In this document: positions 60,754 through 64,000 of the stretch, in pieces
Position numbering within the stretch: position 1 is the stretch's first letter
How the letters are laid out: each line of letters begins with the position of its first letter
From: Vulcanimicrobiota bacterium
GTDB taxonomy: Bacteria; Vulcanimicrobiota; Vulcanimicrobiia; Vulcanimicrobiales; Vulcanimicrobiaceae
NCBI GenBank assembly: GCA_963812155.1
Contig: CAWETW010000001.1
Span: forward strand, 128,001-192,000
DNA: 64,000 bases
Reading direction: 5' to 3'
Notes under the pieces: generated by a model
What the model was told of the DNA's origin: nothing
Database searches by the model: none
What the model saw: only the letters and a program-made list of their open reading frames with translations
Position numbers and translations under genes: made by a program

Positions 60754-62430
60754 TCAGGCGCGTCGAATCTCGCCCTGGGTAATCAGCACTCGGCGCCCGT
60801 CAAGCCTCGTGACGGAAAAGCCCGCGAAGTGCTCGTTGTACGTTCGGCTGTAGTCGGCAAGTAGTCCGAGCGCTTGCTGCTCGCCGACGAGCAGACCCTG
60901 CATGCTGTCGGACCGAAAGTGCACGCCCGCTGAGTCGCGACCGAGCGCGACGTTCGCGGCCAGCTTGTCGATCTCGTTGCCGAGCGTAAGGGTCGGCCCC
61001 GTCCATGCCTCCAACGCCGAACCGTCGGACGTCGCTTGCACCGGGTTCGGAATCGGAAAATCCTCGTTGAAGAACGCCTTCAGCACGGTGATGCACGCGC
61101 CGGCAGTGGCGGCGTGTGCGGCCGGGTACGACGGATGCGTCGGGCTGCCCTCAGGGAAAGCAAGCGGCAGCAGACGGGTGCCGTACGCCGCTTTCGTACG
61201 GGCGACCACCGCGCTGCGCACGATCTCTTCCGAAATATCGTACTGCTTCGTTCCGCCGGCCTGCAGTTCGACGCGTGCCGCGTAGACTTCCGGCCGGGCG
61301 CGCCGATGAAGCAGCCACTTCTGATACCACGACCCCTTCTGGCCGATCAAGGCGGCCTGCGCCAACAGTGTCAACACGTTCTTGTTGCCGAATGTGATGT
61401 CGCCGAACTCGACCTTGTAGGATCGGTACGGGTTGGTCGGCGACATGGCGTCGAGCCCCCACTGGAGAACTGCGAGCGCGGCACCGAGATACGGTTGATA
61501 ACTGAAATCCTGGTGCACGTATTCGGCGAGTTCTCGAAAGCTCGAGATGAAGCGCGGCGTGGCGTCGAATTGAAGTTTCGCGGACGGCCGCGCACCGCGT
61601 TGGCACGCAAGCCATTCCGGCATGCTGGTGAGAAACTGTTGATTGCGAATCGGAAAGCGGTACCGTTGCTCGATTCGGGCGATGCCGAATGGAATTTCCA
61701 TCCACAGGAATTGGCTGATGTACGGCCCGGCGCTGCAACCGGGCCTTTCACCTCGGAAAATCGTCGCCGGGGAGACTTTTCCAAGCGCTGCGCTGGACGG
61801 CACCGAGAAAGCGTTGAGATCGGCAGCCGCGGCGGCGATCAGCGGGCTCTCTTCAAACGCTCGAAATGGAACGTCGCGCACGAGCGCCCGCCAATAGACC
61901 TCGGCCATGTCGGATGCGGCCGCGGCGCTTGCAAAAGCGGGCGGCGGGACGATGCGCGTCGCGTTCGAGTCGACGCCCGCGAGTTCGAACGCGAAGGCTG
62001 CCTGCGGGTTGTTGAGTTTGGCCGAACAGCCCGGTGCTTGCGGTATCCGCTCGAAGTCGCCGGGATTGGCACTCTTGAGTGCCGCTAGCAATGCCCCGTA
62101 CGCGGCTGGGTCGACTTCGCCCAGGTCGTCGCTCGGCAGGGTCTTGGTAAAGCTCGCGCGGCGGTCGGCATAGCGCTCGTCGTCGCCGTTGGTGATCGGC
62201 GGAGACGGCTGCCTCGAAAGATATGCGCGCGCCGCTTCGCAGCGAATCGATTCGGCGCGATGCGCACGCGCAGCGGAAGAAGAAGGTCCGATCGCTTGCG
62301 ACGCGGCCGCACCGGGAACGGCTGCCGCACCGAGTGCCGTGCTCGCCGACAAGACCGCACCCGCACCGGCACCGGCGCGCAAGAATTCCTCGCGGGATAA
62401 CCGCGAGCGATCGTCGTTTGAAGGCCTCAT
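60754..62430 (-). CDS. Vanadium-dependent haloperoxidase (PAP2 superfamily)
   Basis: GPYISQF, WYQKW..HRR.RPE, EGSPTHPSYPAAH, KLAANVALGR..AGVHFRSD; Tat-like N-terminus; ~558 aa. Confidence 0.9.
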   Translation of the reverse strand: MRPSNDDRSRLSREEFLRAGAGAGAVLSASTALGAAAVPGAAASQAIGPSSSAARAHRAESIRCEAARAYLSRQPSPPITNGDDERYADRRASFTKTLPSDDLGEVDPAAYGALLAALKSANPGDFERIPQAPGCSAKLNNPQAAFAFELAGVDSNATRIVPPPAFASAAAASDMAEVYWRALVRDVPFRAFEESPLIAAAAADLNAFSVPSSAALGKVSPATIFRGERPGCSAGPYISQFLWMEIPFGIARIEQRYRFPIRNQQFLTSMPEWLACQRGARPSAKLQFDATPRFISSFRELAEYVHQDFSYQPYLGAALAVLQWGLDAMSPTNPYRSYKVEFGDITFGNKNVLTLLAQAALIGQKGSWYQKWLLHRRARPEVYAARVELQAGGTKQYDISEEIVRSAVVARTKAAYGTRLLPLAFPEGSPTHPSYPAAHAATAGACITVLKAFFNEDFPIPNPVQATSDGSALEAWTGPTLTLGNEIDKLAANVALGRDSAGVHFRSDSMQGLLVGEQQALGLLADYSRTYNEHFAGFSVTRLDGRRVLITQGEIRRA

Positions 62431-62497: not shown

Positions 62498-63457
62498 TCA
62501 GGTTTCGTCCATCCGGTCGCGCGGGTGCGCTTTGTCGTACGCGCGCTTTTTGTGCTGCATCGACATCTTGAGATAGATGCCGGTCGTTGCGAGGCTCTCG
62601 TGGCCGAGAAACTCGCGAATGGTCTCGAGGTCGACTTCGTTCTCGGCCAAATGCGTGGCAAAGGAGTGGCGCAGCGTATGCGGGCTGGCATGCTGCCCGA
62701 TGCCGCTGACTTTGTAGATATCGCGGAAGATCCGCCAGACGTGCATGGCGCTGAGACGCTTTCCGCCGCGTCCGACGAAGAGCGCGTCGTCGCGCGTTTG
62801 GGGCCGCACCCGCAGATACGCCTCGATTGCGGCGGCCGCACTCCGATTGAAGACGGCCACGCGTTCTTTGCTGCCTTTGCCGTGGACCCGAATCTCGCGG
62901 TTGCCCAAGTCGACGTCCTTGAGGTTCACGGAAGCCACCTCGGCGCGGCGCAAGCCGCTCGCGTAGAGCAGCTCCAGGATCGCCAGATCGCGGCGCCGCT
63001 GCATCTCGGAGCGCCCCGCCAGGGTCGTCCGCAACAGCGTGCGGACGTCGGACTCGCCGAGATGTTCGGGCAGCTTGCGCTCGAGCTTGGGGCCCGAGAC
63101 GATCGTGGCCGGGTCGTCGTCGCGCAGCCCGAGGAGTTTCATGTAGCGGTACAGCGCCTTGACCGACGACAGTTTGCGCCGGACGGTCCGCATGTCGTAA
63201 TGCTTGTCGCCGGCGAGCCGCATCACGTAACGCCGGACGTCGGAGGTCGTCGCCGCGCGCAGCTGCGGATAGGCGCGTCCGACGGGGGATTCGCCCGCCG
63301 GCACGCCCGCCAAAAACGCTCCGAACTCTTGCAGATCGCGCGCGTAGGCCTCGACCGTCAGGCGGCTGCGATTGCGCTCGAGCCGCAGGTAGGTCATCAG
63401 GTCGAGGATCAGCTCGTCGGCGACCGGCCGAAAGGTCCGCTTTTCGCGCTTTTCCAC
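62498..63457 (-). CDS. xerC: XerC/XerD-family tyrosine recombinase
   Basis: N-domain YL..ER..S..TVEAY..DL; catalytic R (LYASGLR), K (GKGSKER), HTLRHSFATH, LGH, Y (TTGIY); XerC versus XerD not resolvable by eye. Confidence 0.9.
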   Translation of the reverse strand: MEKREKRTFRPVADELILDLMTYLRLERNRSRLTVEAYARDLQEFGAFLAGVPAGESPVGRAYPQLRAATTSDVRRYVMRLAGDKHYDMRTVRRKLSSVKALYRYMKLLGLRDDDPATIVSGPKLERKLPEHLGESDVRTLLRTTLAGRSEMQRRRDLAILELLYASGLRRAEVASVNLKDVDLGNREIRVHGKGSKERVAVFNRSAAAAIEAYLRVRPQTRDDALFVGRGGKRLSAMHVWRIFRDIYKVSGIGQHASPHTLRHSFATHLAENEVDLETIREFLGHESLATTGIYLKMSMQHKKRAYDKAHPRDRMDET

Positions 63458-63478
63458 GCTCTTCTCGCCTCACACGGT

Positions 63479-63506
63479 ATGCAATATAATAACAGTTTTA
63501 CTGCAT
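63479..63506. other. dif-like tyrosine-recombinase site (11-6-11)
   Basis: ATGCAATATAA-TAACAG-TTTTACTGCAT; arms 9/11 inverted-identical; 21 bp upstream of the xer start. Confidence 0.6.
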
Positions 63507-63737
63507 TCGAGCGGAAGAATGCGCCTCCTGCGGCCATGCGGGGGTGCTGTCCGTTCGGTGTCCGTGAAGAGCGTCAGCACGAGTGCGGGGATGAACCGGT
63601 ACAAGATCTCGGGTACGGTGACCAACGTCGGCTCGGAATCGCAGGGGCCGCGAGACTACTCTGCTGCGCGTGACCGAGCCGAAACAGCGCGCCGCGCTCA
63701 AGTCGGCGCTCGAGGATCTTTCCGACCGCCGGCTGCG

Positions 63738-64000
63738 CGCGGCGTCTATCTCGACGATCCGCGCTACTATCCGTTCTGGGAGCGGGTCGTGGAGCTCGAC
63801 GTGCCGGTCTATATCCACCCAGCCGATCCGGCCGTGCAACCGCGCGTCATCGAAGGATATCCCGAAATGCAGGGCGCCGTTTGGGGATGGAGCACCGATA
63901 ATTCGACGCACTTCCTGCGCACGCTGTTTTAGCGGCTTGTTCGACCGCTATCCGCAGTTGACGATCATCCTGGGCCATATGGGCGAAACGTTGCCGTACT
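63738..64000 (+). pseudogene. Amidohydrolase_2 (aromatic acid decarboxylase-like) fragment, apparently 5'-truncated; runs off the window
   Basis: YLDDPRY.PFWE...ELDVPVYIHP, WGW...S.H.LR, then after a +1 shift ~63928 SGLFDRYP.L.IILGHMGE.LP; no matching N-terminus upstream. Confidence 0.7.

Follow-up and report, generated by a model that had tools for sequence, protein, structure and literature searches.

Single-recombinase Xer/dif systems have been described in several lineages. In streptococci and lactococci, XerS (356 aa) acts on difSL, a 31-bp site with an 11-bp centre that is found directly upstream of its gene, at the terminus and with no other conserved neighbour (PMC1914069; PMC5357621). 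In Campylobacter and Helicobacter, XerH (353-363 aa) acts on difH, which is usually linked to its gene, at distances that vary from 16 bp to 215 kb, and lies 0.8-90 kb from the skew peak (PMC2731167). Single enzymes with 11-6-11 sites or long inverted arms are also described for archaea (XerA) and Legionellales (XerL) (PMC5357621; PMC9765430). Some archaea have a linked xerA-dif module; XerA is described as FtsK independent with a dif that is usually not antipodal (PMC5357621; PMC9765430), and in L. pneumophila xerL is more than 400 kb from dif (PMC9765430).

Here we analysed a stretch of 64,000 nucleotides (the window) from a Vulcanimicrobiota (Eremiobacterota) genome of 2.96 Mb (G000), in which a 28-bp inverted repeat precedes an xer gene. 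Comparison with related genomes makes it very probable that this repeat is the chromosomal dif site of the lineage and that the adjacent gene is its one Xer. A first-pass annotation had proposed that one XerC/D-like enzyme resolves chromosome dimers here; our results support this reading, and none of the computational tests that could have refuted it did so. Judging from the sequences, the system would work like XerS/difSL and XerH/difH while being a member of neither family.

The locus shares with XerS/difSL the single recombinase, the site directly upstream of the gene, the lack of any other conserved neighbour and the terminus position. It differs in the size of the protein (319 aa) and in the spacer (6 bp). 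On the XerS model the protein scores 123.4 bits, in its catalytic half only, against a cut-off of 267 and scores of 381-385 for true members. Identity is 28-30% over part of two XerS-family proteins, with which it does not group.

With XerH/difH, the locus shares the single recombinase and a site of 11-6-11-like layout, in which an inner AAAA is followed by a spacer that has C as its first base and then by TT. For example, difH of C. jejuni RM1221 reads AAAA-CTGTAA-TT (PMC2731167, Table 2) compared to AAAA-CTGTTA-TT here. The likeness to difH that the first-pass annotation pointed out is therefore real for the core, but does not extend to the outer arms: the difH consensus TGAAAAC---A-TTTTCAAA is not matched beyond the inner AAAAC...A-TT, and the outer arms are unrelated to difH and vary widely by clade. 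The protein is also shorter than XerH, which it matches over residues 126-304 only (E 4.7e-15, compared to 2e-36 for XerD).

Protein size, fold family, the 28-bp 11-6-11 geometry and the FtsK gamma domain are common to the locus and to the two-enzyme XerCD/dif systems of E. coli and B. subtilis (CodV/RipX). In contrast to these, there is no second paralogue, the arms are near-symmetric, the gene is at the site and the protein falls below both curated cut-offs. The single enzyme and the inverted arms recall XerA/dif and XerL/dif, the latter compared with our system by description only.

The xer gene and its adjacent site

The gene (62498..63457, minus strand) encodes an intact Xer-type tyrosine recombinase of 319 aa, identified by ORF, HMM and domain searches, in agreement with the XerC/D type first assigned to it. 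The protein combines an N-terminal SAM-like core-binding domain with a Phage_integrase catalytic domain (Pfam) and ends in a XerC-like YxxAHPR. SGLRR (at 167), GKGSK (192), HTLRH (260), LGH (284) and TTGIY (291), which we take to be the catalytic motifs of Xer proteins, are all kept, leaving the tyrosine-recombinase catalytic residues intact. A purine-rich stretch before the GTG start (63460..63470, minus strand) is probably the ribosome-binding site.

XerC is the best-scoring family model (TIGR02224, 277.6 bits for a cut-off of 335), followed by XerD (246.4 for 329.6), XerA (206.8 for 220) and XerS, yet every curated cut-off is missed. The Xer of one relative reaches 222.2 bits on the XerA model (cut-off 220), and XerC scores higher for it too. 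The best sequence match in the PDB, aligned over 290 residues, is chain 14 of 9i5v (401 aa, labelled RaiA), which looks like a fused XerC-RaiA or a mis-called ORF. A single-sequence structure model of the protein was set aside (mean pLDDT 42).

The predicted dif site occupies 63479..63506 on the minus strand, in the same orientation as xer and 21 bp upstream of the GTG at 63457. Its coordinates and sequence are exactly those first annotated: two 11-bp arms, identical at 9 of 11 positions, flank a 6-bp asymmetric centre (63490..63495, minus strand). This centre is the predicted strand-exchange region, by extension from other tyrosine-recombinase sites (PMC5357621). The gene-distal arm (63496..63506, minus strand) ends in AA and the gene-proximal arm (63479..63489, minus strand) starts with TT; these inner bases are invariant in all 52 distinct sites from the class, while the outer positions co-vary.

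The palindrome by itself is not exceptional, so that the case depends on comparison with relatives: G000 contains 1,396 palindromes of 11-6-11 geometry with at least 9 of 11 matches, of which 6 have at least 19 A/T, five of them besides the candidate. A profile of the relatives' sites, trained on a set that included the G000 site itself, gives 45.7 bits at this site and 15.1 bits for the runner-up in G000. The site shows the properties used to recognise dif by Carnoy and Roten 2009 and in a Legionella study (PMC9765430), namely about 28 bp, inverted arms, a 6-bp centre, low G+C and an intergenic position. It is also single copy, with one site in G000 and no second att-like copy in the whole-genome profile scan, and one exact-pattern match in each of three relatives (G072, G075 and G141).

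A canonical dif elsewhere in the genome, which the first-pass annotation named as evidence that would count against its reading, was not found in G000. A motif that we take to be the canonical XerD arm matched 47 places at 9 of 11 positions or better, and by inspection none of them has a matching opposite arm.

Conservation of the site

A related site could be assigned to 69 of the 80 class loci, namely 52, two further out (G043 and G072) and 15 of 20 held-out loci. Since many sites were called by their nearness to the xer start, the held-out set is the sole blind test. Its 15 sites match a known site at 19 or more of 22 arm positions (reversed-sequence control, 17 at most) and lie between -30 and +107 bp relative to the projected start. 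Five of the 11 loci with no site have only 1.5 kb of flank and one has no upstream DNA. All class sites, read on the strand of the gene, are upstream of xer.

The mean arm match in the 52 distinct sites is 8.0 of 11, compared to 5.57 with shuffled right arms (none of 5000 shuffles reaches 8.0), the significance from such shuffles being overstated because the relatives are not independent. Position 5 is complementary in 49 of the 52 (24.5 expected) through three pair types. The best-fitting spacer length is 6 bp, and none of the 52 distinct spacers is palindromic. Symmetric, co-varying arms are in line with one protein for both half-sites, and a fixed, asymmetric spacer is in line with directional exchange.

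As the first-pass annotation anticipated, the site is kept upstream of orthologous xer genes, with variable flanks. Alignments of close relatives often start 7-13 bp before the site and stop at the xer stop codon, the neighbours being different; comparable borders are reported for difSL-xerS (PMC1914069). The linkage to the gene is not universal, given that the site can also be kilobases away or on another contig. For example, it persists 0.4-13 kb upstream of xer behind unrelated genes (EAL/GGDEF, luciferase-like and T5orf172-domain genes). The genome G081, one of the single-contig chromosomes considered below, is colinear with G000 over 80 kb; at about 92% identity it is not an independent case.

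At three loci (L010, L019 and L045), T5orf172/MUG113-domain genes are found directly behind the site, abutting the xer start. Integrated elements at dif as a cause of displaced sites are not supported: the intervening genes are mostly ordinary and there is no convincing second site. In one clade (L021-L023, L026, L032, L034, L129, L132 and L133), inverted CCACA/TGTGG words are found about 10 bp out on both sides of the site. They are similar to what we take to be the DnaA-box consensus, and their sequence makes accessory-protein or DnaA sites at the terminus possible.

We also searched 54 whole genomes of other classes with a palindromic pattern drawn from eight linked sites. The pattern occurs in 48 of them, mostly once (reversed-pattern control, 4 genomes), and has no match in the remaining 6. 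Of these 48 genomes, 16 have the site next to xer and 31 have it on a different contig; its placement is unclear in one. The unlinked sites have less evidence for a terminus position: around three of them, GAAGAAG is polar in G142 and not in G129 or G120, and the skew peaks are at -5.6, +0.5 and -27 kb, respectively. A G-rich word, found post hoc, is biased 37:7 around unlinked sites.

About 11 of the 48 genomes have 2-3 copies of the pattern. Extra sites with different spacers are found at L330 (G083:C7, about 90.3 kb) and in G082, G092, G093, G096, G104, G122 and G152, and one extra copy with an 8-bp centre is located about 50 bp from the main site, near a contig end. These extra copies are candidate sites of plasmids or integrated elements. 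In G083 and G089, contigs end beside the other-class site.

Position at the replication terminus

In all nine single-contig genomes, xer is found at 0.449-0.494 of the chromosome from dnaA; a genome in two contigs gives 0.490. In G000, the cumulative GC skew peaks at C1:149,743, 42 kb from the site (C1:191,479), and in relatives the peak is up to 45 kb away. GC skew is therefore too coarse, and we dropped it as a terminus marker on its own. The skew inversion expected at the site was thus not found close by, yet its distance is inside the range tabulated for difH. The skew of G000 is very uneven between replichores (C3 +14,168; C1 about -1,300 and C2 about -2,300).

We then screened strand-biased 7-mers in regions of G000 outside C1:100-300 kb. 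GAAGAAG has the highest z (245:77 and 112:49), with a bias present on the sense (190:57) and antisense (122:55) strands of genes and in intergenic DNA (45:14). As the first-pass annotation expected of a KOPS-like word, it converges on the site: its last forward copy is 1.2 kb to the left, and its first reverse copy 1.55 kb to the right. The nearest pair of copies directed at the site is at 62276..62285 (plus strand, word count), and the window contains 15 copies on the plus strand and one on the minus strand, overlaps counted separately. A change-point model for G000 gives a 95% interval of about 172-202 kb with 0.73-0.79 of the mass within 10 kb of the site, compared to at most 0.004 at the GC-skew peak.

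The same heptamer is the top switching 7-mer around xer in nine other genomes pooled (212:45). Of the 12 genomes besides G000 that have a site with wide flanking sequence, 8 have the site inside the unique maximal interval, 3 (G043, G053 and G054) inside a tied span and one (G072) outside. In G009, where the site is +6.07 kb from the gene, the flip occurs at +4.8 to +7.3 kb, so that polarity follows the site and not the gene. In G072, 13.1 kb separate the site from the gene, and by a single count the maximum for GAAGAAG (-3.6 kb) falls nearer the gene. The polarity switch of G038 (+7.4 to +10.8 kb) holds only weak site candidates. With the exceptions of G072 and of other-class genomes, the site is found at the terminus and at the convergence point of the motif.

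Gene direction is also in line with a terminus. According to our own gene model, 32 of 39 predicted genes at 19-61 kb of the window face the site, as noted in the first annotation, and over the next 42 kb past it 31 of 43 are directed back toward it.

Octamers that we assume to represent the E. coli-type and B. subtilis-type KOPS are non-polar in G000 (36:38 and 15:17; 17:14 and 5:2). In L. lactis, experiments have defined GAAGAAG, the heptamer that is polar in this class, as the KOPS that FtsK reads; as a caution, many genomes are enriched in words similar to GAAGAAG (PMC3384302). G000 encodes one FtsK with a gamma domain, and the domain is found in 29 of 30 relatives. GAAGAAG is probably read by the FtsK of this lineage.

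Among the FtsK gamma domains compared (L247, L339-L367), the helix has GHPRAV in the class where GAAGAAG is polar, and the three other-class proteins have GY(A/P)RA there. Judging from these sequences, a differing helix may go with a different guide motif.

Overlap with a candidate promoter and possible autorepression

The first-pass annotation placed an extended -10 inside the site. This TG-t-TATTAT is present (63486..63494, minus strand) but weakly conserved, and may be a by-product of the arm sequence: TGnTAnnnT accompanies 21 of 75 sites, at varying positions. The xer promoter is more probably a SigH-type element overlapping the left arm, to judge by its sequence, with a candidate -35 AGGA (63526..63529, minus strand) 17 bp from a candidate -10 GAAT (63505..63508, minus strand), the latter having 2 bp in common with the distal arm. 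This agrees with the SigH consensus AGGA-17/18-GAAT (PMC12456013). G000 has a SigH gene above the cut-off (336 for 294.8), and the pattern occurs at the same exact position at 20 of 75 sites, nearly all in the window's clade. Where genes are inserted behind the site (L010 and L045), the pattern moves with the site.

A sigma-70 scan at the locus returned no -35/-10 pair, nor was a terminator found there. Genome-wide dyad discovery did not place the SigH pattern among its top 30. A related pattern, AGG[AG]-15/16-CGAA, is strand-biased in G000: tandem gaps contain 18 in sense and 5 in antisense orientation, and there are 21 in divergent gaps compared to 1 in convergent gaps.

The bases shared by the SigH-type -10 and the distal arm would place the transcription start inside the site, where bound Xer would block it. 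We tentatively suggest, with slightly less than even confidence, that Xer on its site covers this -10 and represses its own gene. Autoregulation has already been speculated for xerS (PMC1914069). It cannot be the general purpose of the site, because unlinked sites exist.

The first-pass annotation also raised the alternative that the 28-mer is only an operator, for autorepression by Xer or for another repressor in a divergent promoter, dimers being resolved elsewhere or not at all. Of 60 tabulated sites, 37 have the projected start no more than 60 bp away, the SigH-type promoter overlaps the left arm as described above, and the five further AT-rich palindromes of G000 show that operators could take such a shape. 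The plus-strand TATAAT that suggested a divergent promoter is present at 63485-63490 and recurs near 8 of 75 sites. Nonetheless, 11 of the 60 sites are more than 400 bp from the start, sites are kept kilobases or even contigs away from the gene, and a single-copy site whose polarity in G009 tracks the site itself is not what an operator predicts. Furthermore, the genes on the far side are neither conserved nor consistently oriented. We therefore consider it very improbable that the site is merely an operator.

Copy number of Xer and proposed mechanism

The closest public relatives (55-99% identity) carry the labels Ca. Eremiobacteraeota, Vulcanimicrobiota, Ca. Tumulicola or Ca. Baltobacteraceae. 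As to paralogues, which the first-pass annotation proposed to count, G000 has one XerC/D-type gene: tblastn returns one strong match, followed by E 5.6e-6. In the family, 74 of 81 genomes have a match at E<=1e-20 and 70 have exactly one. In the phylum sample, 118 of 121 have a match at E<=1e-30 and 112 exactly one. These counts include six genomes flagged as unpublished (G051, G021, G028, G008, G019 and G169), and one G051 site is in the site alignment; no conclusion rests on them.

With the XerD model at E<=1e-45, exactly one match was found in 15 of 17 phylum genomes (three in one, none in one), compared to at least two in 12 of 14 genomes of other phyla searched in the same way. One conserved Xer-type gene per genome is thus the rule in G000 and its relatives. 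Because G000 is 83.85% complete, a second Xer could be absent from the assembly, but closed relatives speak against it. In G157 (single contig, 97% complete) FtsK was found, with no XerC/D-type gene and, using two site patterns, no site, reflecting either true loss or an assembly gap.

An integrase and the attachment site of a mobile element could by chance be found near the terminus. An integrase beside its site is typical of such elements (PMC1914069), and in our data the Xer tree conflicts with taxonomy and the flanking genes turn over. However, Xer is found, nearly always once, in almost the entire phylum sample, it is antipodal to dnaA in all nine closed chromosomes, and G000 has no second att copy. 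The top matches in phage records are 34-37% identical, with none at 60% or above, the best match in viral contigs is 39%, and the site pattern has no match in viral contigs. Ubiquity and fixed position largely exclude this explanation, which we regard as highly improbable.

Least probable of all is a two-enzyme system in which the gene provides the XerC-like subunit and its divergent XerD-like partner was missed elsewhere: the protein is XerC/D-sized with XerC as its best score, arm positions 7 and 9 often differ between arms and G000 has three other Phage_integrase genes (342-392 aa), but these are weak matches (E>=5e-6 by tblastn), other weak matches vary by genome, six distinct sites are 11/11 or 10/11 palindromes as expected of a homomeric binder, and the search recovers both paralogues in outside genomes.

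We thus favour a chromosomal dif site with a single Xer. Two monomers of the enzyme would bind the two near-symmetric arms. After replication, FtsK, probably oriented by the GAAGAAG motifs converging on the site, would join both sites of a dimeric chromosome at the septum. A Xer homotetramer would then swap strands across the 6-bp spacer, whose asymmetry would set the direction so that dimers are resolved. By analogy with known systems, for which binding, catalysis and activation by FtsK are described (PMC5357621), we infer binding by Xer, recombination and dependence on FtsK.

Possible exchange of enzyme and site

In a quick tree of 67 proteins, the site type follows the Xer clade closely. 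The Xers of the class form their own clade in both outgroup trees (support 99-100), without a supported grouping of this clade with XerS or with any named XerC or XerD group. For the phylum as a whole, a mixture-model quick tree without XerS places Xer on one side of a branch with SH-aLRT 97, consistent with a single origin. An LG+G4 tree that includes XerS does not show this; there, the other-class clade is joined by the long branch of XerS (94).

The Xer tree conflicts with taxonomy and with FtsK. The family of the second order (f3) is one clade of 6 rows in the FtsK tree (SH-aLRT 99), in which one misextracted f1 row (L360, wrong frame) is to be disregarded. Its Xers are found in four places of the Xer tree. 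Holding seven of them together is rejected (AU p = 0.00067), the constraint group being set by taxonomy label and tested after the first tree was seen. Similarly, G000, G054/G040 and G009 group by FtsK (95) yet have three different Xer-site types.

These conflicts suggest whole-module swaps, and it is somewhat more probable than not that lineages of the class have exchanged enzyme and site as one unit. For example, G111 has two tandem xer genes. The upstream gene has a perfect 11/11 site, and its protein falls within the f1 proteins; the downstream one is of the f3 type, with catalytic residues kept and the HPR tail lost, and no f3-type site was found in this genome. The arrangement would be explained by replacement through the insertion of a foreign unit made up of site and gene. 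An old duplication with differential loss is a possible alternative. A close mobile carrier of this Xer was found neither in phage records nor in viral contigs.

More speculatively, and with confidence just short of even, Xer and dif may be a swappable terminus cassette. At least seven clade-specific pairs within the class, possibly not cross-acting, would have replaced one another across family and order lines while FtsK and GAAGAAG stayed with the host, G111 seeming to be caught mid-swap. In the window's clade, the site would cover the SigH-type promoter and couple the level of Xer to occupancy.

Significance and neighbouring genes

No paper on Xer or dif in this phylum was among the matches listed from the open literature, where a glacier-virome paper mentions the phylum; this agrees with the first-pass annotation, which knew of no such module for the lineage. 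PMC3025954 does not include the phylum in its table of phyla. PMC8138268 mentions a candidate-phyla subgroup, and its datasets or supplements could include these proteins.

The results define a terminus, a predicted dif site and a probable FtsK guide motif for a little-studied phylum of soil bacteria, nearly all knowledge of which comes from metagenomes, and dif-xer could be used as a marker for closing and orienting Vulcanimicrobiota (Eremiobacterota) genomes. They would also add a one-enzyme Xer system based on a XerC/D-sized protein that is, by family tests, unrelated to XerS or XerH. Dozens of natural enzyme-site pairs make site choice by a homomeric Xer, and which strand is cut first, testable. 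The same pairs allow a test of horizontal exchange of a core segregation module, where vertical inheritance is reported for XerCD (PMC8138268). Cre-like tools are possible if the pairs are orthogonal and independent of host factors.

Finally, the genes next to the module differ even between close relatives. On one side, a 558-aa ORF (60754-62430, minus strand) has a weak PAP2 match (26.1 bits for a cut-off of 27.2) and motifs resembling those of vanadium haloperoxidases. This ORF is absent at the same place in G081, indicating recent gain or loss beside xer. On the other side (63519-63999, plus strand) is a broken amidohydrolase remnant, with an Amidohydro_2 match at residues 54-131, frame changes and a stop. 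Just beyond the promoter, the corresponding region is 1.4 kb in G081 compared to 0.2 kb in G000.
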